A program made the translations under genes and the position numbers. Source: an uncultured Lachnospiraceae bacterium (GTDB lineage: Bacteria; Bacillota; Clostridia; Lachnospirales; Lachnospiraceae). From it: DNA of 32,000 nucleotides. The notes under the pieces were generated by a model. It was not told where the DNA came from. It did no database searches and saw only the letters and a list, made by a program, of their open reading frames with translations. The stretch lies in NCBI GenBank assembly GCA_910579865.1, contig CAJTXA010000001.1:161852-193851 (forward strand), given 5' to 3'. Within the stretch, counting starts at the first letter, position 1, and each line of letters starts with the position of its first letter. This document shows, in pieces, positions 1-26,239 of this stretch.

Positions 1-715
1 TCTTCTGATATACTAAAAAAGTAATCGTTAATAAAATTCCTACTATTCCAAGCATAATATAAAGAAAATTTTCATAATCTTCTTTTAAAAGTATCATACA
101 AACAATATAAAAGACAATACTAATTCCAAGCAGTACAACCGCCCATTCAACTGCTTTTTTTGCAACTGTTTTTTTTGACTGCAATTCATCTTTTTCATAA
201 CGAATCGATGTCTTTTCTGCTTCTAAATGCCGCATATCTTGCTCTAATACATGTGCATACTTCTCTTCTTCATCTAGTTGAGCCATCATCGGACGAATTG
301 ATTCTCCATATTCTTCCATTTTTTGGTACTGCTTTTCACTAATCTTGCTTTCTGTACTTTGAAATTTCTTTCGCTCTTTATTAATCTCATCAATCCGTGT
401 TGCAGCATCTAACAGTTCTTGGCGATCTTTTTCCTGAATTTCTTCAATTTTTACAACATCATTCAATACACTTCCAATCCTTGCATATTCTTCTTTTAAC
501 TCAGAAAGTTGCCTTTTTGCTACTTTTTTCTGCTCATTTAAATGTTTAATATATTCAAAACATTCCTCCTCACTCTCCAATCGATAGGCTTTTTGTATTT
601 CTAGTTTTGCATAACCAGTTTTGTTTTCACCATCAGCACCTAGATATTCCTGAATTGTCGGTTTTCCCTCCAAAGAAGCCTTTTTTCTTTTAAAAAGTTT
701 TTTCCAAAATCCCAT
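1..715 (-). CDS. hypothetical coiled-coil membrane protein (partial; 3' end runs off the window)
   Basis: Manual minus-strand translation from the ATG at 713-715 gives MGFWKKLFKRKKASLEGKPTIQEYLGADGENKTGYAKLEIQKAYRLESEEE.... It stays open for 238 codons down to position 2. It is absent from the ORF track because there is no stop in the window. A long K/E/Q-rich helical (coiled-coil-like) region is followed by two hydrophobic helices (WAVVLLGISIVFYIVCMILL and LYIMLGIVGILLTITFLVY). The start is 6 nt after the stop of the upstream gene. Confidence 0.7.
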   Translation of the reverse strand, partial: MGFWKKLFKRKKASLEGKPTIQEYLGADGENKTGYAKLEIQKAYRLESEEECFEYIKHLNEQKKVAKRQLSELKEEYARIGSVLNDVVKIEEIQEKDRQELLDAATRIDEINKERKKFQSTESKISEKQYQKMEEYGESIRPMMAQLDEEEKYAHVLEQDMRHLEAEKTSIRYEKDELQSKKTVAKKAVEWAVVLLGISIVFYIVCMILLKEDYENFLYIMLGIVGILLTITFLVYQK

Positions 716-721
716 ATTTCA

Positions 722-2866
722 TCAACCTTCCATCTCATACCGATACTCTTCCATCCATTCTTGCAGTTGCTTTTTTGCATACTCCTCAAACTGACCTAGT
801 TTTCCTTGTCTGCGACAACTCAACGCTTCCGCTGCCAAATAATTTCTATCATCTTGTATTGCTTCCTCTTCTTGTTTTTGCCACTCTCTTTCCCATTGTA
901 TGACCTGCTCTTTTTTTGTCTTTTTCTTCCACTCGGTATAGTCTACCTCCATACCAGCCATTTGCAATGTAAGTAAAAGTTTTTTTAAAATCTCATCCTG
1001 CGGCATATACTCGTATGCCTGTTTTAAAAATTCAGATGCTTCTTCAAAATAAAACAGTTCCATATAAAGTACACCAATATTGTGATATACCATACCAAAA
1101 AATTCCCTTGATTCCCCAGAAGCAGCTTCTAACTTTAATAATAATTGATACTGATTTCTAGCCTGAACATATTGTCGTTCCGTCAAATACATATCTCCTA
1201 ACAGCTTCAATCGTTCTTCCCTGCTTTGTGTTCCAAAATAAGCTAATTTCTCTTTCATCCTTTTCCACTCTACTCCCCTATAATAACCTGTACTCTCCAT
1301 CACAATTGTAATTAGCTCCCCTAGTGGAGCTTTTTTCTTTTTCGCATATTCTAACTTATCTGCCAAAAGATTCATTTCCAAATTATTTCTGATAAAATCC
1401 ATTAATTTTTGACTAAAAAATGTTTCTTCTAATAGATAATTATTATGATAAAGAAAATAACAAAGTTCATCAATTGAATACAATGCCTGTCTACTTTCTT
1501 CTATTTCAAATGGATAACGACTTCTTTTGCTGCCGCACAAAAGAAACCGACCAGTTGCTTCTGGTTCTTCTTTTTCTACAATACCTGAAAGAAGTTCCTC
1601 CACTTTTAGCTTTTTTTGAATTACAGTTCCACTACTTTCTGCATACTGTCCAAATCCTAAATCTGTAGCTTGAAGAATTGCTTCTTCTTCGGATAGAAAA
1701 GAAAGCGACACTTCCACTCGGGTCATTCTTGGTTCCCGATAAGGAAATTCAGAAAGCGGAAGCCGATACTCTAATTTCCCTAAAACTCCCTGCCTTGTAA
1801 TTACAAAAGAAAGCTCTGTAATCTCATCTAAAATTCCTTCTATCTGTGCTTTTGCATGATACCAATATTTTCCCTCTTTTACCAAATTCAGCAGCTTTTT
1901 CTCTTCTCGATAAAAAACACAAATTCCAATACTAACGGAAATGCAGCCTTTCATTCGCATTGTAACAGAATCCATCAACCGTCCAGTAATATGATCAAAT
2001 GCACTTAAACTGGCTCCTTTTGTATATAAATTCATCCCTAAAAATACACGTTTCCTGCTGCAAAGATATTTGAACGTCCGAACAGCCCAATTTTCTTTTT
2101 GGCAAAACCCTTCTCCTATCAGATAGACACAACTGACAGGAGGCCTTACAATCTGCTGCATGAGCAATTCCAAAAAACTTTGATCTGCCTGCTGCCTGCC
2201 TTCCTCTGATTCTAATAAAGAAATTGGAAACAATTCCGAATAATCAATTTCTTCCATTTCTAAAATAATCTTCTCTGCTTTTTGATTTCGATGCAGTTTT
2301 TTCATAATAAAATGTTCCTGTGAAAAATCAAAAAACAACACATCCTGCTTCCAAAGCTCCTTTGGTCTGCTTAATGCATAACAGGCAGCACTTTCTTGCT
2401 CACTCATAGCAAAAATACAATTTTCTTTTATTCCAAGCCGCATCAGACAACGAAATAAAACATCCAATAAAAGGCCATTCTGCTCCCAAAGAGAAATCGC
2501 AACTGCATCTACTTCCCGTCCAATCATCTCCACTCCCGGAATAAAAAGCAGAGTTTCTCTAAGAAAAATTTCAAGCAATTCTTCTGCCGAATATCCATCT
2601 AATACTTCCATTTCCTGATGAAGAACACGCAAAATAAGCTGATCTACTACGATACCTGTCTGTTCAAACTGTGCTGTCAATGCCTCCTCTCCAACTACCC
2701 ATCCCTGTTCCGTCTTAGCTACCAGACAGGGAATTTCATAATCAATTTGGCTGGCAAGAGGACTGACTGACTCCGCATCTTCTCGATCTTCAATATAAAA
2801 GCTAAGTTGTACCTTATTTTTTTGGATATCATAACCTGCTACCAGTTTCTTTTCCAACTTCTCCAC
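722..2866 (-). CDS. uncharacterised Hsp70/actin-fold-like protein with degenerate nucleotide-binding motifs and a C-terminal TPR-like region (possibly Pfam DUF5716, from memory)
   Basis: 714-aa ORF. The N-terminal ~290 aa are collinear with the DnaK NBD. An SBD-beta-like segment includes RVEVSLSFLSEEEAILQATDLGFG. The C-terminal helical repeats include ARNQYQLLLKLEAASGESREFFGMVYHNIGVLYMELFYFEEASEFLKQAYEY. The GTG start at 2864-2866 is 1 nt after the upstream stop, and a TTG 9 nt further in is an alternative start. Confidence 0.85.
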   Translation of the reverse strand: MEKLEKKLVAGYDIQKNKVQLSFYIEDREDAESVSPLASQIDYEIPCLVAKTEQGWVVGEEALTAQFEQTGIVVDQLILRVLHQEMEVLDGYSAEELLEIFLRETLLFIPGVEMIGREVDAVAISLWEQNGLLLDVLFRCLMRLGIKENCIFAMSEQESAACYALSRPKELWKQDVLFFDFSQEHFIMKKLHRNQKAEKIILEMEEIDYSELFPISLLESEEGRQQADQSFLELLMQQIVRPPVSCVYLIGEGFCQKENWAVRTFKYLCSRKRVFLGMNLYTKGASLSAFDHITGRLMDSVTMRMKGCISVSIGICVFYREEKKLLNLVKEGKYWYHAKAQIEGILDEITELSFVITRQGVLGKLEYRLPLSEFPYREPRMTRVEVSLSFLSEEEAILQATDLGFGQYAESSGTVIQKKLKVEELLSGIVEKEEPEATGRFLLCGSKRSRYPFEIEESRQALYSIDELCYFLYHNNYLLEETFFSQKLMDFIRNNLEMNLLADKLEYAKKKKAPLGELITIVMESTGYYRGVEWKRMKEKLAYFGTQSREERLKLLGDMYLTERQYVQARNQYQLLLKLEAASGESREFFGMVYHNIGVLYMELFYFEEASEFLKQAYEYMPQDEILKKLLLTLQMAGMEVDYTEWKKKTKKEQVIQWEREWQKQEEEAIQDDRNYLAAEALSCRRQGKLGQFEEYAKKQLQEWMEEYRYEMEG

Positions 2867-2867
2867 C

Positions 2868-5800
2868 TCACATTAGTGTACTGTTCTTCTCAACCAGTTT
2901 CTGTTTCCTTAAATAAAGCTCCATCTGCTCTGCTAATGTTTGCTCATCTTGCATTTCAATAGAAGCACACATATCATTTAAAATATCATATCGGCTCTCT
3001 CCATAGACGCTGTTCCAATGATGAATTTGAATTACATCGCTTTCATTCAAACCACTCTCTCCCTCTTTTTCTTCCGAAATATAATACTGCAATTTCTCTC
3101 CATAAAACAAAATCATCTGTTTTCCATAAATTCCTTCATAGATATGTTCCATCTTTTCCATACGATACTTAAGCCGTTCTTTCTTTTCTACATCCAGACT
3201 ATAGTGCAGATATACTTTACTACCTGGTTCTGTTCGATATTCCAAAATTGTTTTATCCCGTAAAGCAAATGGCAAAATAATTCGTTCTGCTAAACTTTGA
3301 TAAAAAGAGAAATACGTGCCATTTAAAGAAAGCAATTCTAAAATCTGTCCTGCTATCTCTTTTTCTACCTCTGTATTTTTTTCTTTTCCTGCTAACCAAG
3401 AAAGAAGTGCCATTTGGCAAATTGGAAGAAGTGTCTTTTGTAACTGATATTCTCGTATCAAATATTGAAAAATCTTTTCATCAATTACAATATCTTGTAC
3501 AAAATACAGATAAGACTGCCAAGCAAGATATGCCTCCTTTACCATCTGATTTCTGCCATCCTTATAATAAGATGAAAAAATTTCTGGCATAAGCACAGCT
3601 TTTGTAAACAATGCTTGTACTAAAATTCGTTCTTCTAACTCTGTTGTATCCATCTCAAAATCAATTGCTGATTTCCAAAGATGGCACATTTCTTTTGTTG
3701 TATTATTATAATATTGTACCAAATATTTTAAAATAGTTTCTTCATATTTTCCTTTTTGATAAACACTTGCACATAATTTTACTAGCTTCTCATTTTCTGC
3801 CATCTGTAATTGATGAATCTGATGAATACAAAGACGCAATAAACGATTGGAAGTAATCCCTTCAAATCCATACTTTTCTATCATTTCCCATGCCTCTTCA
3901 TACCGATTGCGAATAATAAAAAGTTCAATCACCTGTCTACTCTCTCTTATCTCAAGTGATTCCTTATAGACCGAATCTAAATATTGTTCTAACTGTTCTC
4001 CTTCATAATTTTCCATATAGTAATCCAAAATATGTTGGATAATCTCACTTTGATAGGCTTTTTTCAAAAGTGGAAAACTCATTGTTTCTTTAAAAAATCC
4101 CATTCTATCATTTTCTTCTGCTAAATATCCTGCTTCATGTTCCCCCATATAAAGCCATAGCCAAACATCCCCATTTACTAAATTTTTACAATCCTTTATC
4201 AGCCCTTTTTCTTCTATTAAATCCTCAATCTGATACTTTGTATGATTTAAAAAACGTCTCCCTTTTCTATCTTCAAATACAATCACACAATCTGAGGTAT
4301 ATACTGGAAAATAAACCTCTCCCTGTTCTAAAGGCAATTTCCATTCACAGTCCATCTCTTTATGCCGAACAATTACAAAGCTCACCTTTTGATCCCAACA
4401 TTGTAATCGTTTCGTAAGAAGAATGGCTGGCAATTTTTCTGCAACTGCTTCATCTAAAATTGCCGATGAAAGAATCCCCCGATAAATACAAGCTAATTTT
4501 TTACTAATATGTCCTTTTTTTAACTGTTCTTCTGCAAACTGTTCAATGGCTGGCAAATAATTTCGCAACATAACTGGATTTTCTGCACCATAAGAAACAA
4601 TATTACTATAAAGCAGTTCTTTTCGTTCTTCATCTAATGCCTGATCATAGATAAAGTATAATTGAATTGACTTTGGCAGCTCCCCTTGAAATGTATAAGG
4701 AAGTGTATTCATATATGCTTCATATAATCCTGTCATTGTAATTTGCCGCTGCACTCCCTCTTGAAACCAAATAAAATTTTTTTGTTCTAAACGAAAATTT
4801 CGAATTAATTGTGATAACAATGCCTCTAATGCAGTTTTACTTCGATAACTTTGATAAATAACTTTTAAAATCTGAACCAAAAGCGGCTGATAGCTTTGTT
4901 CTGCTAATGCCTGATCTGCAATCTGCAAAGCTGCTTTTTCATTTAATATCCCACGTGAAATTCCCCACCATGCTGTTCGAAGTTCAAATCGATCCAATAC
5001 TCGAATTAATGTAGGCAGTTCATTCATAATCATACATGCTTCATAATACAAAAATGAACTATTGCTTCCTGTAAAAGACTGTTCTTTAATCTTTGTTAAA
5101 CGAAGACTTTTATTTATGGCACATTCTTCATCTAAATACAAAATTACCCACAACATCCTGCCATCTTTGGGATATTTTTCATATAATTCCTTTACTTGTA
5201 TTGCCGCATCTTTTGCAAATAAACTATCCCTTGTTAAAAGTGTATAAACATAGAGATAATAGCTATATAAAAATGGCTCTTCTTCCCGACTTGAAGTAAT
5301 CCACTCTGCTATCACTGACAATTTCTTTGCGGCTTCTTGATTGCGCCGCATTGTAATCCATACTTGTATTTCTAATAGTTGAATAAAAATATCTTTTGAC
5401 TGTAATTGTTTCATTTTAGAAATGGTTTCTAAAGAATCCCGACACCAGATATCCGTTGTAATTTCATGTAACCGAAATGCAAAATAAAGTTTGGCAAGCC
5501 GACAAATTCCTTTTTTCCACTCTAATGTACAATTCTCTTTTTCTACATAGCGATAGACCAAAAGCTCATATTCTAAACTTTGATAAGGCGTTTCGATATA
5601 AATTTTTCCAAGATTATACCCAGCATGTATCTTACTTTCTTCAATCTGATAAGACAAGGTAAAACTATTTCCAGCGAATTCTTCTGTTGTAAACTGACTT
5701 CGTTCCAAAAGAATAAAATCCCCATCGGTATAAACCTCAATTTCCATATATCCCCAAGTATCTTTTTTTATCTCCAACTGATCCCCTATTGTCTGTGTAA

Positions 5801-6413
5801 AATCCAAATACTCTTGCCGATCTTGTTCTAATAATAATACAATACGACTTTTCTTATTTACACAAACAAGGAATTCCTCCATTGCTGTATTTGGAGAAAT
5901 CCCATAGCATAATGTTTCATATATTGTCTGTTCTCTAGGTAGCCCTGCTAATAATACTCTGGAAAATTCAGGAGAAAAGAATAATGTCAATGCTTCTTCA
6001 TAATGATTTTTAACCAGATTTGTAAAATGAAACAAATTTTTTATCTTTCCCATAGAACTATTGATATACATTTCTTCTACAATAATCTCATATGGAATTG
6101 CTAATTCTCCCGCATCAGAAACAACTTGAATCAATCCTTTTAACCGTTTTCCTGGTTTTATCCCTCTTGCATGTGCTTCATAATGAATCGTTGTATGTTT
6201 TCCAATAAAGCTACTTTCTTTTAGCACTAGATAAGCACTGTCAGAATAAAGTAACCCACGAGCATCAATTCCATTTTGACTATCAATTGAAAAATTTCCC
6301 AATAAAATTCCTTCTGTCGGAAGTAAAATCTGAATGATTTCTACAGAAACAGTTAGTTCTGGAATGGTTTTATCAAATATTCCTTTTGCCAGTTTGCTTA
6401 TCTTTGTCCTCAT
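2868..6413 (-). CDS. uncharacterised 1181-aa protein with apparent beta-rich modules and helical repeats (possibly Pfam DUF5717, from memory)
   Basis: Long uninterrupted ORF. The ATG at 6411-6413 is preceded by AGGCGG about 8 nt upstream. The N-terminal ~110 aa look beta-rich (GNFSIDSQNGIDARGLLYSDS...GLIQVVSDAGELAIPYEIIVEE). Further beta-rich segments lie near aa 205-290, 680-730 and 1060-1130, separated by long helical stretches. I found no Walker A, HD, HxxH or other catalytic motif. Confidence 0.9.
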   Translation of the reverse strand: MRTKISKLAKGIFDKTIPELTVSVEIIQILLPTEGILLGNFSIDSQNGIDARGLLYSDSAYLVLKESSFIGKHTTIHYEAHARGIKPGKRLKGLIQVVSDAGELAIPYEIIVEEMYINSSMGKIKNLFHFTNLVKNHYEEALTLFFSPEFSRVLLAGLPREQTIYETLCYGISPNTAMEEFLVCVNKKSRIVLLLEQDRQEYLDFTQTIGDQLEIKKDTWGYMEIEVYTDGDFILLERSQFTTEEFAGNSFTLSYQIEESKIHAGYNLGKIYIETPYQSLEYELLVYRYVEKENCTLEWKKGICRLAKLYFAFRLHEITTDIWCRDSLETISKMKQLQSKDIFIQLLEIQVWITMRRNQEAAKKLSVIAEWITSSREEEPFLYSYYLYVYTLLTRDSLFAKDAAIQVKELYEKYPKDGRMLWVILYLDEECAINKSLRLTKIKEQSFTGSNSSFLYYEACMIMNELPTLIRVLDRFELRTAWWGISRGILNEKAALQIADQALAEQSYQPLLVQILKVIYQSYRSKTALEALLSQLIRNFRLEQKNFIWFQEGVQRQITMTGLYEAYMNTLPYTFQGELPKSIQLYFIYDQALDEERKELLYSNIVSYGAENPVMLRNYLPAIEQFAEEQLKKGHISKKLACIYRGILSSAILDEAVAEKLPAILLTKRLQCWDQKVSFVIVRHKEMDCEWKLPLEQGEVYFPVYTSDCVIVFEDRKGRRFLNHTKYQIEDLIEEKGLIKDCKNLVNGDVWLWLYMGEHEAGYLAEENDRMGFFKETMSFPLLKKAYQSEIIQHILDYYMENYEGEQLEQYLDSVYKESLEIRESRQVIELFIIRNRYEEAWEMIEKYGFEGITSNRLLRLCIHQIHQLQMAENEKLVKLCASVYQKGKYEETILKYLVQYYNNTTKEMCHLWKSAIDFEMDTTELEERILVQALFTKAVLMPEIFSSYYKDGRNQMVKEAYLAWQSYLYFVQDIVIDEKIFQYLIREYQLQKTLLPICQMALLSWLAGKEKNTEVEKEIAGQILELLSLNGTYFSFYQSLAERIILPFALRDKTILEYRTEPGSKVYLHYSLDVEKKERLKYRMEKMEHIYEGIYGKQMILFYGEKLQYYISEEKEGESGLNESDVIQIHHWNSVYGESRYDILNDMCASIEMQDEQTLAEQMELYLRKQKLVEKNSTLM

Positions 6414-6447: not shown

Positions 6448-6477
6448 ATTATACCACGATCCCCCTTCTTACGGCAA
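6448..6477 (-). promoter_or_regulatory. sigma-A-type promoter with extended -10 for the three-gene operon
   Basis: The minus strand reads TTGCCG, then an 18-nt spacer ending in TGG, then TATAAT (the TGnTATAAT form). It lies about 30 nt upstream of the ATG at 6413 and only 8 nt downstream of the xer stop codon. Confidence 0.55.
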
Positions 6478-6484
6478 GCAGTTC

Positions 6485-7315
6485 TTACAAATACATCTGT
6501 GTGGTCTGTATATCAGAATGTCCCATCATCTGCTGTACCACATGAATATTCGTTCCATTTTCAATTAAATGAGCTGCAAAAGAATGGCGTAGTGTATGAG
6601 GTGTAATCTCTTTTTTAATTCCTGCCTGATTTCCATATTGTTTCATTAATTTCCAAAATCCCTGCCGACTCATCGCTTCTCCAGAACAATTAATAAAAAA
6701 ATAATCCGATTCTCTCCCTTTTAACAATTCTGTTCGTGCATGTTTCAAATATTCCTCTAATGCCTGTTTCGCCTTTTTATGAAAAGATACAATTCGTTCC
6801 TTTTCTCCTTGTCGTAAAACACAAAACCCCAACTGCATATTAATGTCCATCATAGTAAGTCTTAACAACTCAGAAACCCGTATTCCGGTTGCATACAAAA
6901 GTTCTAACATTGCTCTGTCACGAATTCCTTTTTTATTTTCTTTGGATGGTTGTTCTAACAAATAATTTACCTCTTCCACTGTCAATATTTCAGGCAGCTT
7001 CCGTTCTACTTTTGGTGCCTTTAAATTCCAAGAAGGATCGTTTCGAATGATCTCTTTGTAATATAAATAATGAAAAAATGACTTAATTGATGCAATATTT
7101 CTTGAAATAGAAGATGCTGCACTCTGACTTTTCTCTAAATAAAGTACATAGGCATTTAGCCAAGTTTCTGTTACCTCCTCTACTTTTTGAATATCCTGTC
7201 CCTTTAAATAAAGTTCTAACTTCTTTAAATCTCTTTTATAAGAAATCTCTGTATTTGAAGATGCATGTTTTTCTTGTAATAGATATGCAGAAAACTGCTC
7301 AATTTCCCTCTCCAT
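6485..7315 (-). CDS. xerD: tyrosine site-specific recombinase, XerD/XerC family (short C-terminus)
   Basis: SAM-like N-domain (SNTEISYKRDLKKLELYL). Catalytic set present: ATGIRVSEL (Arg), HTLRHSFAAHL (HxxR), MGHSD (His) and TTQMY (Tyr). I prefer the start at M27 of the track ORF (MEREIEQFSAYLL, GTGGAGG just upstream). The longer track start overlaps the upstream gene and has no RBS. Synteny with spoIIM and nudF resembles the B. subtilis ripX region. Confidence 0.75.
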   Translation of the reverse strand: MEREIEQFSAYLLQEKHASSNTEISYKRDLKKLELYLKGQDIQKVEEVTETWLNAYVLYLEKSQSAASSISRNIASIKSFFHYLYYKEIIRNDPSWNLKAPKVERKLPEILTVEEVNYLLEQPSKENKKGIRDRAMLELLYATGIRVSELLRLTMMDINMQLGFCVLRQGEKERIVSFHKKAKQALEEYLKHARTELLKGRESDYFFINCSGEAMSRQGFWKLMKQYGNQAGIKKEITPHTLRHSFAAHLIENGTNIHVVQQMMGHSDIQTTQMYL

Positions 7316-7367
7316 ATAGCCTCCACTCTGCCCTATTCTTCTTTTTAAACCGTTTTTCTTATATTCA

Positions 7368-7943
7368 TTATCGGACAAGTGTAATAAATTCATAATACTT
7401 TTGTAAAATTGCTGTATTAAAATAAGCCTCCACTATTACACCAATAAAAAAAATTAACAAAATTTTGAAAGCTAAAACTCCTTTTCTCTCTTTTCTTACA
7501 AATCCTTGCATCCCTTTCCAATCCAATCCATAGAAAAAATAGTGTGGAAATAAAAGTAAAATAAACTCTAAAACACCAAGTATTCCTCTTTGATGACACA
7601 GAGCAGATTGTAAAATTCCTGCTGATAACCCATAATAAAGTGCAAAGAAAAAACGAACTTGTTTTTGAAAACGTGTCATCTCACAAAACCACAATAACAA
7701 AAATCGCTTCCCTCGTCTTTCTAAAATATACCATAGTAATCTACCATGCAAAATTTTAACCTGCTGATAGCCCATCTGTGACAAATTCATCGCAATTAAA
7801 AACTGTTCGGTATAACGTCCTCCATGAAAATTAAAAATCAACGTACCTGCTAAAATTCCTACTAAAAACCAAATTGCATAGATTCCCTCACTTTTTTGCA
7901 AAGCTGTATATGGAATTTGTTTTCTTTTTTCCACTGCTTCCAT
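7368..7943 (-). CDS. spoIIM: polytopic membrane protein, stage II sporulation protein M-like
   Basis: 191 aa with 4-5 hydrophobic helices. Its position between a NUDIX gene and the xer gene matches the B. subtilis nudF-spoIIM-xerD neighbourhood. The family call rests on topology and synteny, not on a search. Confidence 0.5.
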   Translation of the reverse strand: MEAVEKRKQIPYTALQKSEGIYAIWFLVGILAGTLIFNFHGGRYTEQFLIAMNLSQMGYQQVKILHGRLLWYILERRGKRFLLLWFCEMTRFQKQVRFFFALYYGLSAGILQSALCHQRGILGVLEFILLLFPHYFFYGLDWKGMQGFVRKERKGVLAFKILLIFFIGVIVEAYFNTAILQKYYEFITLVR

Positions 7944-11835: not shown

Positions 11836-14079
11836 TTACAAACGCAGCTTTGTTCCCTTTTCATCTCGTTTCATCTCTTTTACTCTTGAAACAGCTACTT
11901 TATTATTTCGATAGGTAAACATTTCCTGTTCATTCTCTAACAAAAATGCTTGTTCAATATAATCCTTTTCTGCTAGTTTCATTCCTCGTACACCAATCGC
12001 ACTTTTCTTTTTTTCTGATACTTCCTCCAAAGAAAAACGTAACATATATCCTCCATGAGAAGATAATAACACTTCCGTTTCATTTTCTAAAACAGGACAA
12101 ACACAGACAACCTTATCAAATTCTTCTAATTTGGTTGCCATTACCGTTTTTCGATTGACGTCAAACTCAGATGCATCTACTAGTTTTACCATTCCTTTTG
12201 TGGTAGCAAAAAAAAGTTTTCTTTCTCGAATATAAGAAAAAGTAAAAATCCCAACAATTGCTTCCCCTGCACTAGAATAATTTCCTAAGTTATCAATTGG
12301 TCGTCCTTTATCCCGCAGCTTTCCAAAAGGAATATCTAACATTTTAATCTGATGCATATTTCCAGTATCTGTAAAAATACAGATTCGATCCGTATTCATA
12401 CAACGAAATACATATTTATTCTCATGTTCTATTGTCTCTGTATTTCTTTCATAAGTAGAAAGATCCATTGTCTTTGCATATCCAAATCGATCCATTGTAA
12501 AGACAATCTCCTGCTCTGCAATTGGTGCTTCCTCGTAGACTGCTGCCTGCGCATTTAAAATTTCTGTTCTTCGTTCCAATGAAAATTCTTTTCGAATTGC
12601 CTCTAAATCTTTTTGAATTACACGCAGCATAGAGGAATGATTTTCCAAAATATCTGTATATTGTGCAATATTTTTTAAAATCTCTTTATATTCCTTTTCT
12701 AATGCTTGTATCTCTAATCCAACTAACTTTTGCAATCGAAGCTCCAAAATAGCAGTCGCTTGTGCTTCTGTAAAATTTAACTTTGCCGCTGCCTTTTGTG
12801 AAGTTTGTTTTTTAAATTGAATCTTACTTGTCTCTCCACTTATTAAACACTTTTTAACCTCTTTTATCGAACGACTTCCTCTTATAATTTCAATAATTAA
12901 ATCTAAACAGTCATAAGCTCTCATTAGTCCTTCTTTTATTTCTTTTTTTTCCAATTCCTTTTTTAAAAGATATTGATATTTTCTGGAAACCAAATCAATT
13001 TGAAAGTCCAAATAGTGACGAATAATATCTCGAATTCCAAGTTTTTCTGGCTTTCCATTTATAATTGTCAGCATATTTACCCCAAAAGTATCTTCTAATT
13101 TTGTCTTTTTATAAAGCAAATTGGACAATTTTTCAATATCTGCATTTTTTCTTAATTCCAGTACAATCCGAATTCCTTCTTTTGAACTCTGATTTAAAAT
13201 ATCTACAATATCTGTTGTTTTTTTCGCCTCTACCAAACCTGCAATATCAGCTAAAAGTTTTCCAAGATTACTTCCAATCAAAGTATAAGGAATCTCTGTA
13301 ATAACTAACTTATCTCGTTCATTTTTCTTTTTTGCTGGTTCAAATTCTAACTTTCCACGTACCTTAATTTTTCCGCTACCAGTCCTATAAATTTCTTCTA
13401 ATTCACTTTGATTAATTACAATTCCACCTGTTGGAAAATCTGGACCTTTTATATATTCCATTAATTCTTTTGTACTGATCTCTTCTTTTTCAATAAAAGC
13501 TTCTACTGCCAAAATTACCTCTCCAAGATTATGTGGCGGAATCGATGTAACCATTCCAACTGCTATTCCATCTGCTCCATTCACCAAAATATTAGGAACC
13601 CGAACAGGCAAAACTTCTGGTTCTTGTTCTGTTTCATCAAAGTTTGATAAAAAGTTAATTACATTTTTGTCTAAATCTTTTAGATAGACTTCCTGTGTAA
13701 ATTTTTTCAATCTAGCTTCTGTATACCGCATTGCAGCTGGAGAATCTCCCTCTATTGAACCAAAATTTCCATGTCCATCTACTAGTGCCATTCCTTTCTT
13801 AAAATCCTGCTCCATTACAACAAGTGCTTCATAAATAGAACTATCTCCATGTGGATGATACTTTCCCATTGTATCTCCAACAATTCTAGCCGACTTTCGA
13901 TGGGGCTTATCAAAATTTAACCCTAATTCATGCATTGCATATAAAACTCGACGCTGTACTGGTTTTAATCCATCTCGTACATCTGGCACTGCTCGAGAAG
14001 TAATTACACTCATTGCATAATCCACAAAACTTTTCTGCATTACATCAGCAAATTCTGTACTAATAATCTGCTCCGCCAT
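11836..14079 (-). CDS. parC: type IIA DNA topoisomerase subunit A, ParC-like (topoisomerase IV subunit A or second GyrA paralog)
   Basis: VPDVRDGLKPVQRRVLYAM motif. QRDR-type HPHGDSSIYEALV. Catalytic Tyr context AAMRYTEARL. It is only 747 aa and I found no GyrA-box (QRRGGKG-like) in the C-terminal domain. Confidence 0.7.
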   Translation of the reverse strand: MAEQIISTEFADVMQKSFVDYAMSVITSRAVPDVRDGLKPVQRRVLYAMHELGLNFDKPHRKSARIVGDTMGKYHPHGDSSIYEALVVMEQDFKKGMALVDGHGNFGSIEGDSPAAMRYTEARLKKFTQEVYLKDLDKNVINFLSNFDETEQEPEVLPVRVPNILVNGADGIAVGMVTSIPPHNLGEVILAVEAFIEKEEISTKELMEYIKGPDFPTGGIVINQSELEEIYRTGSGKIKVRGKLEFEPAKKKNERDKLVITEIPYTLIGSNLGKLLADIAGLVEAKKTTDIVDILNQSSKEGIRIVLELRKNADIEKLSNLLYKKTKLEDTFGVNMLTIINGKPEKLGIRDIIRHYLDFQIDLVSRKYQYLLKKELEKKEIKEGLMRAYDCLDLIIEIIRGSRSIKEVKKCLISGETSKIQFKKQTSQKAAAKLNFTEAQATAILELRLQKLVGLEIQALEKEYKEILKNIAQYTDILENHSSMLRVIQKDLEAIRKEFSLERRTEILNAQAAVYEEAPIAEQEIVFTMDRFGYAKTMDLSTYERNTETIEHENKYVFRCMNTDRICIFTDTGNMHQIKMLDIPFGKLRDKGRPIDNLGNYSSAGEAIVGIFTFSYIRERKLFFATTKGMVKLVDASEFDVNRKTVMATKLEEFDKVVCVCPVLENETEVLLSSHGGYMLRFSLEEVSEKKKSAIGVRGMKLAEKDYIEQAFLLENEQEMFTYRNNKVAVSRVKEMKRDEKGTKLRL

Positions 14080-14127
14080 AATACTCTTCCTTTCTATCTC
14101 AAATTCTTATCACAATCCTTCTCTTTT

Positions 14128-16047
14128 CTATGCATCAATCTCAGCCTCTTTTGCATGGTTATAAATAAATTCCCGTCGAAGTAGCACATCACTTCCCATT
14201 AAAATAGAAGTCACATCAGAAGCCATCTTTCCATCTTCAATTTCTACCCGTTTTAACATCCGAGTTTCTGGATTTAAAGTCGTTTCCCAAAGTTGGGCTG
14301 CATCCATCTCTCCAAGTCCTTTATAACGCTGTAAAATAAAATTTTTATGTGTTTTTCGATATTTTTCTAGTGCCTTATCATCATACAGATACTCTTCTGC
14401 TCCCCGCTTAGGTATTGCTTTATAAAGCGGTGGCATAGCAATATAGACATGTCCCTCGTAGATTAACTCTGGCATAAATCGATAAAATAACGTTAAAAGT
14501 AAAGTACTAATATGTGCTCCATCGACATCTGCATCTGCCATAATAATAATTTTATGATAGCGCAGCTTCGAAATATCAAAATCATTTCCATATCCCTCTG
14601 AAAAGCCACAGCCAAACGCTAGTATCATAGTCTGAATTTCTGCATTTGCCAGTACTTTATCCATTGTCGCTTTTTCTACATTTAGTATCTTTCCACGAAT
14701 TGGCAAAATCGCTTGATAGAGTCGATTTCTTGCCATCTTAGCAGATCCCCCTGCTGAATCCCCTTCTACAATAAAAATTTCACATTTAGAAGCATCCCGA
14801 CTTTCACAATTTGCCAATTTCCCATTCGAATCAAATGAAAATTTAGGTTTTGTCAACATATTCGTTCGGGCTTTCTCTTCCGCTTTTCGAATCTTAGCTG
14901 ACTTCTCTGCACATCCAATTACATTTTTTAAAATTTCCAAATTTTTATCAAAAAATAGCTGTAATTCTTCATTTGTAATTTGTGAAGTTGCTTTTGTTGC
15001 ATCTGGATTATCCAATTTCGTTTTCGTCTGTCCCTCAAACCGAGGATCTGGATGTTTGATTGATACGACTGCTGTCATCCCATTTCGGACATCTGCTCCA
15101 GTAAAGTTTGTATCCTTCTCTTTTAAAATTCCAAGTTCTCGTGCATAACTATTGATTACCGTTGTAAAACTGGTTTTAAATCCTGTTAGATGTGTTCCTC
15201 CCTCTTGGGTATAAATATTATTGCAAAATCCCAAAACATTTTCTTGAAAATCATTGATGTACTGGAACGCTACATCTATCACAATTTGATCCAATTCTCC
15301 ATGGAAGGCAATTACATCATGTATGGTTTCTTTTCCTTCATTTAAAGCACGTACAAAACCTCGAATCCCTTCTTTTTCATGAAATACAACCTTTTCTTCC
15401 TCTCCAAAACGCTTATTTTCAAAATAAATCGTAAGTTCTGGATTTAAGTAGGCTGTCTCATGTAAACGGCTTTTTACTGCATCTGCTTTAAAATGAATTT
15501 GATCAAAAATTTCTTCATCTGGTAAAAAATTAATTCTTGTTCCTGTCTGTCTTGTCTTTCCAATAATAGGAAGCAACCCATCCACTAATTCAACAACTGG
15601 AACTCCTCTTTCATAGCGATCATGATGAATTCCACCATCTTTTGAAATTTGAATATCCATATAAGTTGACAATGCATTTACTACAGAAGAACCCACACCA
15701 TGCAAACCACCACTTGTTTTATAAGCGCCATCTCCAAACTTTCCTCCTGCATGAAGCGTAGTATAAACAATTCGTGCTGCTGGAAGTCCTTTTGGATGCA
15801 TATCCACTGGAACACCTCGTCCATTATCTTTTATTGTAGCAGAACCATCTTGTTCCAATGTTACCCAAATTGAATCACAATATCCATTTAAATGCTCATC
15901 TACTGCATTATCTACTATCTCATAGATTAGATGATTCAATCCCTTTACTGATACGCTTCCAATATACATTCCTGGTCGTTTTCTTACTGCTTCCAGTCCC
16001 TCCAACACGGTAATATTTTGCGCATTGTAAGTATCCTTCGCTCCCAC
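14128..16047 (-). CDS. parE: type IIA DNA topoisomerase subunit B, ParE-like
   Basis: LEGLEAVRKRPGMYIGS motif. Toprim motifs IVEGDSAGGSAK and PIRGKILNVEKA, plus IMADADVDGAHI. 639 aa. GTG start with AAGGAAG upstream. It lies directly upstream of the ParC-like gene. Confidence 0.7.
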   Translation of the reverse strand: MGAKDTYNAQNITVLEGLEAVRKRPGMYIGSVSVKGLNHLIYEIVDNAVDEHLNGYCDSIWVTLEQDGSATIKDNGRGVPVDMHPKGLPAARIVYTTLHAGGKFGDGAYKTSGGLHGVGSSVVNALSTYMDIQISKDGGIHHDRYERGVPVVELVDGLLPIIGKTRQTGTRINFLPDEEIFDQIHFKADAVKSRLHETAYLNPELTIYFENKRFGEEEKVVFHEKEGIRGFVRALNEGKETIHDVIAFHGELDQIVIDVAFQYINDFQENVLGFCNNIYTQEGGTHLTGFKTSFTTVINSYARELGILKEKDTNFTGADVRNGMTAVVSIKHPDPRFEGQTKTKLDNPDATKATSQITNEELQLFFDKNLEILKNVIGCAEKSAKIRKAEEKARTNMLTKPKFSFDSNGKLANCESRDASKCEIFIVEGDSAGGSAKMARNRLYQAILPIRGKILNVEKATMDKVLANAEIQTMILAFGCGFSEGYGNDFDISKLRYHKIIIMADADVDGAHISTLLLTLFYRFMPELIYEGHVYIAMPPLYKAIPKRGAEEYLYDDKALEKYRKTHKNFILQRYKGLGEMDAAQLWETTLNPETRMLKRVEIEDGKMASDVTSILMGSDVLLRREFIYNHAKEAEIDA

Positions 16048-22860: not shown

Positions 22861-22925
22861 AAAGACCGATAAGCTCTACTAAAATAATTCTTATTTTAAT
22901 TTAAATGAAAGATGGGAGAAAACAA

Positions 22926-24077
22926 ATGACCACAAGTGAAAAAGCTCTATTATTACATGAAAAATGGAAAGGTAAAATCGAAACTACCCCAAAATGTGCG
23001 ATTCAATCTAGAGAAGATCTGGCATTAGCCTATACACCAGGAGTAGCAGAACCTTGTAAAGTAATCGCACAAAAAAAAGAAGCCGCCTATCAATATACAC
23101 TAAAAGCCAACACTGTAGCAGTTGTATCTGATGGCAGTGCTGTTTTAGGACTTGGCAATATCGGGGCTTATGCTGCTATGCCAGTTATGGAAGGAAAAGC
23201 TGCTTTATTTAAAGCATTTGGTGGTATTAATGCCTTTCCAATCTGTTTAGATACACAAGATACCGAAGAAATTATCCAAACAATTGTTCATATTGCTCCT
23301 GCTTTTGGAGGTATTAACTTAGAAGATATCTCTGCTCCTCGCTGTTTTGAAATTGAAGAACGTTTAAAAAAGCTCTTAGATATTCCAGTTTTTCATGACG
23401 ATCAGCATGGAACTGCTATTGTTGTTCTTGCTGGTATTATTAATGCACTAAAAGTCGTTGGTAAAGAAAAAAAACAATGTAAAATTGTAGTAAATGGCGC
23501 TGGCTCTGCTGGTATTGCTATCACCAAATTACTCCTTACTTATGGCTTCCCTTTTATTACTATGTGTGATAAATCTGGAATTTTGTCTAAAACAACAGAA
23601 AACCTAAACTGGATGCAGAAACAAATGGTAGAACTCACAAACCTAGAAGGAAAAACTGGCTCTTTAGCAGATGCTCTAAAAGGTGCAGATATTTTTATTG
23701 GTGTATCTGCTCCTAATATTGTTACAAAAGAAATGGTTTCTTCTATGAATCAGGATGCAATTCTTTTTGCAATGGCAAATCCTATTCCAGAAATTATGCC
23801 TGATATTGCCAAAGCCGCTGGAGCAAGAGTAGTTGGCACAGGCCGATCGGATTTTCCAAATCAAGTCAACAATGTAGTTGCTTTTCCTGGTATCTTTAAA
23901 GGCGCATTAGAAGGACGTGCAAAGCAGATTACAGAAGAGATGAAACTAGCAGCAGCAACTGCAATTGCAAGTCTTGTTTCTGATGAAGAATTAAGTGATG
24001 AAAATATTATGCCGCAAGCTTTTGATCCTCGTGTTGCTGAAATAGTCAGCAATGCAGTAAAAAGCCATATAAACTAA
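22926..24077 (+). CDS. NAD(P)-dependent malic enzyme (short form)
   Basis: Motifs YTPGVAEPC, VVSDGSAVLGLGNIGAYAAMPVMEGKAALFK and NGAGSAGIAI. I prefer the start at the second ATG (MTTSEKALLLHEKWKGKIE), which has GGGAGA 7 nt upstream. The track's start at 22905 has no RBS. Confidence 0.9.
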   Translation: MTTSEKALLLHEKWKGKIETTPKCAIQSREDLALAYTPGVAEPCKVIAQKKEAAYQYTLKANTVAVVSDGSAVLGLGNIGAYAAMPVMEGKAALFKAFGGINAFPICLDTQDTEEIIQTIVHIAPAFGGINLEDISAPRCFEIEERLKKLLDIPVFHDDQHGTAIVVLAGIINALKVVGKEKKQCKIVVNGAGSAGIAITKLLLTYGFPFITMCDKSGILSKTTENLNWMQKQMVELTNLEGKTGSLADALKGADIFIGVSAPNIVTKEMVSSMNQDAILFAMANPIPEIMPDIAKAAGARVVGTGRSDFPNQVNNVVAFPGIFKGALEGRAKQITEEMKLAAATAIASLVSDEELSDENIMPQAFDPRVAEIVSNAVKSHIN

Positions 24078-24078
24078 T

Positions 24079-25014
24079 ATGGACTGGAACCAAAAACCTT
24101 ATTATTCTTTAGATTTTTATTTAAAACAAACCTATGGAGAAAAAATCTATCGGCTTGCTTTAAATGGTGGTATGAACTGTCCAAATCGGGATGGTATGGT
24201 TGGAACAGGAGGCTGTATTTTTTGCAGTGCTGGTGGTTCTGGCGACTTTGCTGCCTCCCATCTGCTCTCCATTACCGAACAAATTGAACAGGAAAAGAAA
24301 AAAATTCAAAAAAAACGGCATTGTAACCATTATATCGCTTATTTTCAAGCCTATACAAATACCTATGCACCAGTTGAAACCTTACGTCTTCTTTTTACAG
24401 AAGCAATTTCTCATCCAGATATTGTAATTCTTTCCATTGCTACACGCCCGGACTGTTTAGGAAAACCCGTTTTAGACCTATTAGAAGAACTCAACCAAAT
24501 CAAACCTGTATGGATTGAATTAGGTTTGCAAACAATGCATAATAAAACTGCTGACTTTATCCATCGTGGCTATCCACTTTTTGTATATGAAGATGCTGTC
24601 ATGCAGCTTAAAAAACGGCATCTTACTGTAATTACACATATTATTTTAGGACTTCCCTATGAAACAAATGCAGATATGCTTTCTACAATTTCCTATCTTA
24701 ATCAAATTGGCTGTGATGGAATTAAGTTGCAGCTTCTGCATATTTTACGTGGCACACAACTTGCAGAACTTTATCAAAAACAACTTTTTTCTGTTCTTAC
24801 ACAAGAGGAATACCTTTCTATTCTTATTCAATGTATTGAACAATTATCACCAGATATCGTTATTCATCGTGTTACTGGAGATGGGCCAAAAGACTTACTT
24901 TTAGCTCCTCTATGGAGTCAAAATAAACGTGGTGTATTAAATTCACTTCATCGAGAAATGAAACTGCGTGGTGCCTATCAGGGAAGGAGCCTACTATGTC
25001 AACAGAAGTACTGA
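24079..25014 (+). CDS. radical SAM protein, TIGR01212/YhcC-like (function unknown)
   Basis: CPNRDGMVGTGGCIFC cluster-binding region near the N-terminus. About 311 aa. The ATG is 1 nt after the malic enzyme stop. Confidence 0.8.
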   Translation: MDWNQKPYYSLDFYLKQTYGEKIYRLALNGGMNCPNRDGMVGTGGCIFCSAGGSGDFAASHLLSITEQIEQEKKKIQKKRHCNHYIAYFQAYTNTYAPVETLRLLFTEAISHPDIVILSIATRPDCLGKPVLDLLEELNQIKPVWIELGLQTMHNKTADFIHRGYPLFVYEDAVMQLKKRHLTVITHIILGLPYETNADMLSTISYLNQIGCDGIKLQLLHILRGTQLAELYQKQLFSVLTQEEYLSILIQCIEQLSPDIVIHRVTGDGPKDLLLAPLWSQNKRGVLNSLHREMKLRGAYQGRSLLCQQKY

Positions 25015-25520
25015 CTCTATACAAATTAATGGTATTATATATGTTAAGTAAGGTTAATTTTCCTCTTACTAATGCACAAATCTCCAATTTTATACTAGGA
25101 AAAGAATATACCAATTACTTTACCTTACAGCGAATCTTATCTGAGCTCTTAGATGTAGCTCTTATTAGTACAAAAACCATTCGTCATACCACTTATTACT
25201 TAATGACTTCACAAGGAGAAGAAACCCTTCGTTTTTTTGGAAATAAAGTATCTGACTTGATTAAAGAAGAAATCGATGCCTATTTAATTGAAAACAAATA
25301 TGAACTTCGCAATGAAGTTGGAACCATTGCTGATTATTATAAATCGACAAATAAGGATTATATTGTTCACTGTCAGGTTAAAGAAGGTTCCTCTACTCTA
25401 ATTGAGTTAAATATTGCTGTACCAACGGAAGAATATGCGGAACGAATGTGTTTTAATTGGCGGGATAACAGTCAAGATATTTACTCTTACATTATGACTG
25501 CGCTTAATCATAAGGCATAA
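24996..25520 (+). CDS. DUF4364-like small protein (predicted winged-helix)
   Basis: 174 aa. N-terminus LTLYKLMVLYMLSKVNFPLTNAQISNFIL. GGAAGGAG RBS 7 nt before the ATG. It overlaps the radical SAM gene by 19 nt. Confidence 0.7.
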   Translation: MSTEVLTLYKLMVLYMLSKVNFPLTNAQISNFILGKEYTNYFTLQRILSELLDVALISTKTIRHTTYYLMTSQGEETLRFFGNKVSDLIKEEIDAYLIENKYELRNEVGTIADYYKSTNKDYIVHCQVKEGSSTLIELNIAVPTEEYAERMCFNWRDNSQDIYSYIMTALNHKA

Positions 25521-25574: not shown

Positions 25575-26180
25575 TTAACGTCCAAAACACTGATGAATTG
25601 GACTAAGAATTACTGGTTGTATCTGTTTTCCTTCTAATGCTTCTTCTAATGTTGTAAGAATTAAATCCGTATGCGCAATCATTGAATTTGGTTTTCCTAC
25701 ACAGCTATCCTGTCCAAATGGGACAAAATATACATGTTTTGTATTCATCAATAATCCAATATTTTTTAAATTCATACTAAGTGAATCATTACTAGATAAC
25801 GAAATTACCAATGGCCGATTATTTCTTAGATGTGATTTTGCTGCCATTAATACAGGAGTATCTGTAATTCCATTTGCAAATTTCGCCAGTGTATTTCCAG
25901 TACAAGGAGCAATCAATAAAATATCAAAAAGATTTTTTGGCCCAATTGGTTCTGCTTCTGGTATTGTAAGAATTGGGGTATTTCCAGTAATCTCTTCTGC
26001 CTTTTTTAAAAAATCCTCTGCCTTTCCAAAACGAGAATCTATACTTTTCGCATGATTTGAAAAAATGGGTGTTACTTTTGCTCCTTCTTCTACTAAGTGT
26101 TTCATCTCCGTATAAATTTTCTCATACATACAAAAGGAACCGGTCAAAGCCATTCCTATTCTTTTATCATATAACCTCAT
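25575..26180 (-). CDS. spoVFB: dipicolinate synthase subunit B (flavoprotein)
   Basis: Collinear with B. subtilis SpoVFB: KRIGMALTGSFC, AEPIGPK, APCTGNTLAKFANGITDTPVLMAAK, NNRPLV and FVPFGQD..GKPNSM. I prefer the start at MRLYDKRIG, with GAGGGA upstream. Confidence 0.9.
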   Translation of the reverse strand: MRLYDKRIGMALTGSFCMYEKIYTEMKHLVEEGAKVTPIFSNHAKSIDSRFGKAEDFLKKAEEITGNTPILTIPEAEPIGPKNLFDILLIAPCTGNTLAKFANGITDTPVLMAAKSHLRNNRPLVISLSSNDSLSMNLKNIGLLMNTKHVYFVPFGQDSCVGKPNSMIAHTDLILTTLEEALEGKQIQPVILSPIHQCFGR

Positions 26181-26239
26181 AAGGAATCCCTCTTTTCCTA
26201 TCCTGGTACAAGACTTCTGTAACTTTGCTAAATGGTTGT

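Follow-up and report, generated by a model that had tools for sequence, protein, structure and literature searches.

The locus described here raises the question of what an Hsp70-like protein may be used for once its nucleotide-binding motifs have degenerated. It was found in a 32,000-nucleotide stretch of DNA (hereafter, the window) from an uncultured Lachnospiraceae bacterium. A sequence-only reading of this DNA had proposed a 714-residue open reading frame (ORF) at positions 722-2866, with an Hsp70 architecture and a C-terminal part made of tetratricopeptide repeats (TPR). The ORF is confirmed as a single one of 714 codons on the minus strand, encoding an Hsp70-like and TPR fusion protein, and a protein identical to its product is present in public metagenome data. 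Below, the Hsp70-like part is called module B and the C-terminal extension module C; the gene upstream encodes module A (1181 residues) and the gene downstream module D. The claimed architecture holds. Structure prediction, Foldseek and sequence profiles agree on an ASKHA nucleotide-binding domain (NBD), followed by an interdomain linker and a beta-sandwich substrate-binding domain (SBD).

The AlphaFold2 model of the 714-residue protein was built from 23 homologues. It has a mean predicted local distance difference test score (pLDDT) of 86.9 and a predicted template modelling score (pTM) of 0.72. Search for structural similarities in the PDB using Foldseek gave 50 top matches that are all Hsp70s containing both an NBD and an SBD, including DnaK, Hsc70, BiP, mortalin, Ssb, Ssz1 and Hsp110 (best E=6.2e-16, ca 12% identity). 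The order of domains is that of canonical Hsp70s (PF00012; E. coli DnaK, PDB 4B9Q, 7KRU and 2V7Y). The single sequence has no match to the Pfam model PF00012 (HSP70) at E<=1, and its matches in the PDB are weak, mostly to designed TPR proteins, with no Hsp70 among them. Therefore, a family profile was needed. This profile was derived from 65 sequences covering the N-terminal 430 residues of the protein, a member of Pfam DUF5716. It matched Geobacillus DnaK (E=5.1e-7) and, over profile positions 1-199, Mycoplasma DnaK (E=2.2e-6). Nearly all of the 21 weak profile matches in the PDB were to Hsp70s (DnaK, Ssb, BiP). An hhalign comparison with E. coli DnaK aligned columns 10-247 with a probability of 63%; a global hhalign alignment to DnaK breaks down exactly at the deleted subdomain IIB (see below) and is unreliable there.

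Because the structure model and the family profile both find Hsp70s, the collinearity with DnaK that had been noticed by eye reflects true homology. Regions 9-17, 46-60, 121-129, 151-165 and 176-185 are matched residue for residue (hhalign; HMMER profile, E=5e-7 and 2e-6), and region 383-406 of the SBD is matched by sub-region hhalign (E=0.006). The collinear motifs of the NBD comprise a G-x-D hairpin (D13 for DnaK-D8), IPT/W..G.EA for TPS/LVGQPA, viTv for VITVPA and D180 for DnaK-D194. The adenosine-motif row (residues 247-253) and the last-helix row (274-289) belong to the same alignment, but taken alone they are not significant (E=0.34) and rest on evidence at the level of the fold. On the basis of the model, the DUF5716 protein is a deeply diverged Hsp70 paralogue, related by homology and not by chance. 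Homology is also supported by the sequence profiles, yet it lies beyond the reach of the curated PF00012 model.

The family is already catalogued. Residues 122-421 match DUF5716_C (PF18980) with 254.2 bits for a cutoff of 34.7 (E=1.7e-75). Since the PF18980 model begins at residue 122, the phosphate-1 region is outside it. A TPR_2 match at residues 593-624 is sub-threshold, and a scan of NCBIfam found no model for module A or the B-C fusion protein. In the literature, the name DUF5716 turned up in a single paper, on cancer and without relation to the family, and the Pfam accessions of DUF5716 and of DUF5717, the family of module A, are cited nowhere. Both names are database placeholders; no paper found describes their function.

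The NBD corresponds to residues 1-300 (positions 1967-2866, minus strand), as defined by AlphaFold2, Foldseek, the profile, hhalign and column counts. The sequence-only reading had stated that every nucleotide-binding motif is replaced and that the Asp and Gly/Thr residues binding ATP-Mg are lost. We compared these positions using residue numbers checked on the E. coli DnaK sequence and counts taken from the columns of the 65-sequence alignment. For K70 and E171, two profile alignments differ by one or two residues and both candidates are given. The replacement is extensive. G10-T11-T12 of DnaK becomes Q-K-N (C/S-D/N-D in the family) and G196-G197-G198-T199 becomes S-Q-E-H (S/T-K/E-E/K-G in the family). 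K70 corresponds to D75 or L77, with no conserved Lys in the family, and E171 to M154 or S155, with no conserved Glu. D201 corresponds to I187, at a variable position.

Two aspartates are nevertheless retained, so that the claim of their loss does not stand, nor does that of a replacement of every motif; the earlier table of motif correspondences is itself essentially right. DnaK-D8 corresponds to D13, an Asp in 62/65 sequences (95%), and DnaK-D194 to D180, an Asp in 50/65 (77%) and a Glu in 7/65 (11%). They are all that is kept of the catalytic and phosphate-binding set of DnaK. Near the first of them, DnaK-G6 is retained as G11 (Gly in 61/65). In the adenosine region, G251 corresponds to DnaK-G341 (Gly in 65/65, 100%), G253 to the next Gly of the motif (58/65, 89%) and G284-A285 to G374-A375 (64/65, 98%, and 61/65, 94%). 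The equivalence of these last positions to DnaK relies on the order of secondary structure elements, the sub-alignment itself having E=0.34. D13, D180 and G251/G253 are among the most conserved residues of DUF5716. Moreover, both phosphate-loop beta-hairpins have a DnaK-like length in the AlphaFold2 model, with strands 8-14/18-25 and 175-181/186-194.

A second major change concerns subdomain IIB. In DnaK, this subdomain of ca 83 residues clamps the adenine and binds exchange factors. Here, the strands of lobe IIA are separated by about 30 residues only (residues 214-243, two helices), compared with ca 110 in DnaK when the flanking helices are included. As judged from the secondary structure of the model, the IIB lobe is essentially gone.

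What activity may such a domain retain? From the residues present, hydrolysis by module B is unlikely and nucleotide binding may occur. Given its degenerate catalytic residues and the loss of the Gly/Thr phosphate loops, module B is most reasonably read as a binding or adaptor protein that does not hydrolyse ATP. The earlier suggestion of a probably non-catalytic pseudo-Hsp70 adaptor is thus plausible but unproven: the catalytic residues are indeed degenerate, but the conserved Asp pair and adenosine glycines make nucleotide binding possible. An alternative is that module B works as an active chaperone with a specialised task. It would truly be an ATPase, relying on non-canonical residues (for instance the conserved E158 or H156 in place of E171 or K70) and perhaps stimulated by module A or C. 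Module C would then be a TPR co-chaperone, and the recruitment of specific clients, for instance proteins of the membrane or envelope, would fall to modules A and D. The conservation of both Mg-binding aspartates and of the adenosine glycines would fit this idea, as would the preserved length of the phosphate-loop hairpins and the hydrophobic linker of the family. Yet the equivalents of K70, E171, T199 and D201 are not conserved, the Gly-rich loops are missing, and both the exchange-factor site on IIB and the lid are absent. We consider this alternative possible but unlikely; further evidence bearing on it is given below.

The linker and the SBD span residues 301-425 (positions 1592-1966, minus strand), according to AlphaFold2, Foldseek, hhalign and conservation. 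Eight beta-strands are predicted within residues 301-421, and the Foldseek alignments cover chains with both NBD and SBD. Region 296-430 is collinear with DnaK 385-520 in the sub-region hhalign comparison (E=0.006). SVTMR aligns with DVLLL of the linker, VSIGI with LSLGI, G332..W335-Y336 with N415-TT-I-P419 and L-D347 with E-D431. A further correspondence is that of PYREPRMTRVEVSLSF...D with PAPRGMPQIEVTFDI...D, and P.R....R.E....F matches PRGMPQIEVTF. The best-conserved motif of the whole DUF5716 family, D402-x-G404-F405-G406-E/D, is located in this domain. The family linker, [YF][LIV][FL][LV], aligns to the hydrophobic 389-VLLL-392 of DnaK. Finally, unfused homologues stop right after the last SBD strand and have neither a helical lid nor an EEVD-like tail.

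The SBD also bears on another possibility, that of an actin-like cytomotive filament protein, as MreB, FtsA and ParM are also ASKHA proteins; modules A and D would then be membrane or scaffold partners. The fold is common to bacterial actins, the loss of IIB makes the NBD more compact and the N-terminus of module D resembles membrane-targeting amphipathic helices. However, the top structural matches are all Hsp70s with NBD and SBD and none is an actin, the profile matches DnaK, Ssb and BiP only, and the NBD is followed by an Hsp70-specific beta-sandwich with collinear motifs. A filament protein is therefore very improbable.

The C-terminal extension had been described as ca 160 TPR-like residues replacing the Hsp70 lid. 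It is longer, ca 285 residues, and TPR-like only at about residues 549-647 (positions 926-1222). A fusion linker, residues 426-438 (positions 1553-1591, minus strand), joins B to C in this lineage; it has a lower pLDDT and is absent from unfused homologues. Module C then occupies residues 439-714 (positions 725-1552, minus strand), as defined by BLASTP, stand-alone homologues, Pfam, profile and secondary structure. It contains an N-terminal hydrophobic strand, a small beta-meander, helices, the TPR-like repeats and C-terminal helices. The profile of the module C family matches consensus TPR proteins with E=4e-29.

In unfused loci, B ends and C begins with its own Met. In one such locus (L004), the gene of the DUF5717 protein (1194 residues) is followed by those of DUF5716 (424 residues), a 278-residue protein and a 404-residue protein. 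Residues 433-714 of the window protein are homologous to the 278-residue protein (BLASTP, E=3e-27), and an exhaustive search found stand-alone homologues of module C of ca 276 residues. B and C are separate in 77 of 79 related genome loci and fused in the two others, which are the closest relatives. Outside this clade, fusions also occur: 32 of the 150 best representative clusters are at least 665 residues long (22-29% identity). The sequence comparisons thus identify the C-terminal extension as the product of the next operon gene, fused to B, and not as a lid substitute. Most DUF5716 members do not carry this fusion. Besides the linker, other family-consensus residues are changed in the window protein (H156, F160, Y162, G185, P378 and E407). 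Together with the changed linker, this suggests a relaxed or altered constraint after the fusion of B to C.

The N-terminus of module C is strongly conserved as M-x-G-[LIV][LIV]-L-C-x-G-K/R, with a near-invariant Cys. Here it reads GRFLLCGSKR (residues 439-448, positions 1523-1552). This strand is reminiscent of NRLLLTG, the model substrate of DnaK. In the TPR, the first Gly is followed by an invariant Asp (G-D), in contrast to the G-N of clamp TPRs; in the second repeat, a Val is found. We considered a TPR of the EEVD-clamp type and rejected it from the alignments: C has no carboxylate-clamp Asn, and B has no acidic EEVD-like C-terminus. These same features argue against an active chaperone, for which the presence of TPR partners, the classic Hsp70 co-chaperones, would otherwise be favorable.

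Module A, encoded at positions 2868-6413 (minus strand) and defined by Pfam, AlphaFold2 and Foldseek, matches DUF5717_N (E=6.5e-261) and DUF5717 (E=4e-93; PF18984/PF18983). Its AlphaFold2 model (pLDDT 87.5) shows four immunoglobulin (Ig)-like beta-sandwiches, at residues 20-124, 193-288, 667-731 and 1054-1129, and two TPR-like alpha-solenoids, at residues 294-665 and 738-1043. Foldseek related the former to tandem ASH/Ig-like domains (7sqc, 9ijj, 9fh8, 2qsv), including ciliary central-pair proteins and the SPD-2 domain of CEP192, and the latter to the TPR solenoid scaffolds Ctr9, Ski3 and IFT-A. No enzyme fold and no J-domain were found among the Foldseek matches of module A. Within the operon, only the degenerate NBD is therefore potentially catalytic. 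Neither a J-domain nor a GrpE-like fold appears among the matches of module A or of the B-C protein; the absence of a J-domain in A and C also weighs against an active chaperone.

Module D begins with an ATG at positions 713-715, six bases past the B-C stop, and its 5' part (positions 1-715, minus strand; first 238 codons) runs off the window. It was defined from its translation and from homology to relatives. It is 84% identical to a 396-residue protein encoded downstream in the relative locus L001 (12150-13340), and homologous to the product of the 404-residue gene of unfused loci (E=8e-61). The 396-residue protein is composed of a hydrophobic-basic N-terminus, an acidic stretch, ca 150 residues of coiled coil, a transmembrane hairpin and a highly conserved helical C-terminal domain. 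The N-terminus is MGFWKKLFKRKK in module D and MG[FL][FW]x[KR][LF]F..KKK in the family; this peptide recalls membrane-targeting amphipathic helices, but also motifs that bind to Hsp70. The conserved C-terminal domain (LQNKVKIRYVNN..., EMVEIRH) has no known relatives, and the module D profile matched nothing in the PDB or Pfam.

Related loci were searched for by a DUF5717 alignment scan with one genome per species, and 80 loci were retrieved. The operon is found in at least 580 species genomes, almost all of Lachnospiraceae, including Butyrivibrio, Roseburia, Lachnospira, Acetatifactor, Suilimivivens, Waltera and Anaerosacchariphilus. Each of the 80 retrieved loci has its modules in the order A-B-C-D, any missing module being accounted for by a contig end. 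The window conforms to this organization, with A at 2868-6413, the fused B-C at 722-2866 and D from 715. The intergenic gaps, of 1 nucleotide between A and B and 6 nucleotides between B-C and D, indicate translational coupling, as judged from the sequence. The invariant synteny strongly backs the earlier guess that the Hsp70-like protein works jointly with its 1181-residue neighbour. The loss of subdomain IIB, the DUF5716/DUF5717 identity and the four-module operon had not been noticed in the sequence-only reading. Six bins labelled Alistipes, Muribaculum, Bacteroides, Odoribacter or Bacteroidales (L014, L050, L058, L066, L068, L083) carry an A-B-C-D operon of the Lachnospiraceae type with Firmicute-like flanks. 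They probably correspond to mis-binned contigs and not to horizontal transfer.

The start of the B-C gene is ambiguous. The listed start is a GTG (2864-2866), 1 base past the stop of the upstream DUF5717 gene. Nine bases further in, a TTG (2855-2857) would give a 711-residue protein beginning with MEKKLV, as many homologues do, and a GAGGTG is located six bases 5' of this TTG. From the sequence, both starts are equally plausible.

A sigma-A-type promoter with an extended -10 element, TTGCCG-N18-TATAAT, is located at positions 6448-6477 (minus strand), about 35 nucleotides upstream of the DUF5717 start. It has a consensus score of 10/12 in addition to the TG just 5' of the -10 hexamer. Many related loci have a similar TTGC..-TGnTATAAT site ca 40 nucleotides upstream of the homologue of this gene. 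A scan of the 400 nucleotides upstream of A, in the window and in 58 loci, found neither CIRCE nor CtsR operators. As a positive control, perfect CIRCE (HrcA) operators were readily found at the neighbouring htpG and clpB genes. The idea of a heat-shock or stress regulon was thus rejected, and the operon is outside the classical heat-shock regulons.

Two gene contexts recur upstream of A on the same strand: PrsA-like, HtpG, in some cases a peptidoglycan-binding protein, then A (ca 26 of the 80 loci), and ClpB, other genes, RarA, then A (about 12-16 of the 80). The chaperone genes are located 1-6 kb upstream of the DUF5717 gene (loci L009-L086). Their vicinity would favor an active chaperone, but it may simply be inherited lineage synteny, and the lack of CIRCE or CtsR upstream of A, while CIRCE is present at htpG and clpB, argues against it. 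More generally, the recurrent flanking clusters of the 80 loci are housekeeping genes (HtpG, ClpB, RarA, ABC transporters, PurB/F). The window itself is core chromosome, with xerD, a weak SpoIIM-like gene, NUDIX, proC, a type IIA topoisomerase pair, prfA, prmC, rho and dpaB. A link to sporulation, suggested by the spoIIM-like, xerD and dpaAB neighbours, was set aside: the operon flanks vary between lineages and the promoter is sigma-A-like. Overall, the function of the operon looks like a housekeeping one, not regulated by heat shock.

Taken together, the data lead us to propose that module B is a peptide clamp or adaptor within a membrane-tethered scaffold complex, a reading to which we give a probability of about 0.5 and for which we infer the following mechanism. 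Module B would not be a general ATP-driven foldase; the catalytic Lys, Glu and Thr, the Gly-rich loops, the exchange-factor-binding lobe and the lid are all lost. It would act as a non-hydrolysing or extremely slow clamp, whose SBD would hold a partner by a conserved peptide that is both hydrophobic and basic. The N-termini of C and D, conserved across loci, provide two candidate client peptides: 'G-[LIV][LIV]-L-C-x-G-K/R' in C and 'MGFFKKLFKRK' in D. The clamp would assemble or regulate a cytoplasmic A+B+C scaffold complex, which D would tether to the membrane. The partners are indeed non-enzymatic, A being made of Ig-like domains and TPR solenoids, C of TPR, and D being an orphan coiled-coil and transmembrane protein. 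Nucleotide binding may still set the conformation of the clamp, since the two aspartates and the glycines of the adenosine motif are retained, as is the hydrophobic linker in the family.

Several observations weigh against this proposal. Residues 440-444 of module C were considered as a pseudo-substrate in the SBD cleft, but their secondary structure is equally compatible with a beta-meander inside C; in the model, the strand at residues 440-443 could belong to a meander with residues 453-454 and 461-462. The N-terminal motif of D would fit an amphipathic helix that binds membranes just as well. In the fused clade of the window, linker residues 301-304 (positions 1955-1966) are V-T-M-R, and allostery may depart from the family norm. 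The conserved Asp pair and Gly could mean a genuine ATPase, perhaps stimulated by a partner. Finally, the proximity of htpG, clpB and prsA-like genes hints at proteostasis over a purely structural role.

The clamp proposal can be extended. The operon would then encode a Lachnospiraceae-wide membrane-tethered machine, in which an Hsp70 paralogue has turned into a permanent structural clamp on a pseudo-substrate peptide, with residual nucleotide binding as a switch. This extension is speculative and we hold it to be doubtful. If true, a bacterial Hsp70 would have been repurposed to assemble a large Ig/TPR scaffold with a dedicated role in the cell, for instance in organising the envelope, division or an organelle-like structure.

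Few proteins have been studied as thoroughly as Hsp70s. To our knowledge, nearly all known bacterial members (DnaK, HscA, HscC) are nonetheless canonical chaperones, driven by ATP and assisted by J-proteins and exchange factors. Compared with DnaK, in addition to its low identity and its degenerate loops, the window protein has IIB almost fully deleted and no C-terminal tail. Its gene has no J-protein or GrpE gene nearby and is set in a scaffold and membrane operon. Some Hsp70 paralogues, Ssz1 of the ribosome-associated complex and Hsp110/Sse1, also behave as stable structural or regulatory subunits and not as cycling foldases. Ssz1 has a truncated SBD and binds ATP without any need for hydrolysis. 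Structures of this type (6sr6, 5mb9, 2qxl) are among the Foldseek matches. Unlike DUF5716, however, these eukaryotic proteins keep IIB and most nucleotide contacts, and have J-protein or Hsp70 partners.

Module C, coupled genetically or covalently to an Hsp70-like protein, recalls the TPR co-chaperones Hop/STI1, CHIP, FKBP51 and Tom70 (profile E about 1e-4 to 1e-5). The likeness is that of generic TPR, as designed consensus TPRs score far better. Hop/CHIP-type clamps also differ from module C by the invariant Asp that follows the TPR Gly in C, whose Hsp70-like partner has no EEVD tail.

A published precedent exists for a degenerate bacterial Hsp70 joined to helical repeats, though in a different genomic and functional setting. 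CnuD, or CnuCD, of type III CoCoNuT restriction systems contains an Hsp70-like NBD and SBD with degenerate nucleotide motifs, joined to alpha-helical repeats (Bell et al. 2024, PMC11090510). Its authors predict that it binds ATP and barely hydrolyses it (PMC11090510). By description, not by sequence, the two proteins are alike in the physical joining of these parts. However, CnuD has HEAT-like repeats and is tied to McrB/McrC-type GTPase-nuclease modules and defence islands. The window operon has TPR repeats, DUF5717 and membrane-protein partners and a family-wide, housekeeping-like distribution, and no McrBC is present in the 80 loci; neither an McrB-like GTPase nor McrC-DUF2357 was found among their recurrent flanking clusters.

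Could the operon nevertheless be an anti-phage or conflict system, resembling CnuD of the CoCoNuT type IV restriction systems, in which D would be the effector and disrupt membranes? The occurrence of such Hsp70-like proteins in defence systems (PMC11090510) and the nature of D, a coiled-coil membrane protein without assigned function, would be in line with it. PADLOC gave no defence model for A, B-C, C or D, with noise-level coiled-coil matches for D only, and the 80 loci contain no McrB/McrC, nuclease or other effector gene. Moreover, the operon is single-copy, keeps a strict order and has diverged in step with the host family across at least 580 species. Its neighbours are core genes such as xerD, proC, type IIA topoisomerase, rho and prfA, and its sigma-A promoter is of the housekeeping type. 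We give little credence to a defence function.

In the DUF5716 family, a lidless, IIB-less and catalytically degenerate Hsp70 is hard-wired, and in some cases fused, to a TPR protein, with a membrane anchor and a 1200-residue Ig/TPR scaffold as further partners. Hundreds of Lachnospiraceae species have kept it, in a bacterial family that is dominant in the gut of mammals and in the rumen. The present analysis provides a fold and a testable working model for two Pfam domains of unknown function. It also describes a natural experiment on which parts of Hsp70 are needed for peptide clamping and which for the ATPase cycle. The operon draws attention to a conserved machine of the cell that is still uncharacterised, in organisms whose genetics is just becoming possible.

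Some neighbouring genes of the window deserve comments. The xerD ORF (6485-7393, minus strand), 302 residues long as listed, overlaps by 26 nucleotides the SpoIIM-like ORF (7368-7943, minus strand). Because XerD has 280 residues in close relatives, its translation probably starts at an ATG further downstream. The 191-residue membrane protein encoded at 7368-7943 matches SpoIIM weakly in Pfam (E=0.0016, below cutoff). Region 25575-26968 (minus strand) contains dpaB, identified clearly as the gene of dipicolinate synthase subunit B by an NCBIfam equivalog model. Next to it, a dpaA-like ORF of only 242 residues aligns to positions 93-284 of a 297-position model with a score under the cutoff, so that it lacks its N-terminal part, has a misplaced start or has decayed. 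Presumably, this organism forms spores or descends from one that did.

At positions 11836-16047 (minus strand), the B/A pair of a type IIA topoisomerase has scores intermediate between the models for gyrase and for topoisomerase IV. Its A subunit reaches neither the gyrA nor the parC equivalog cutoff, and Pfam matches only one C-terminal beta-propeller blade in it. The pair may correspond to a second, ParE/ParC-like, topoisomerase. Finally, the sole plus-strand block of the window, at positions 22905-25520, has a GC skew close to 0 and encodes a malic enzyme, a radical SAM protein with Radical_SAM_C and a DUF4364 protein.

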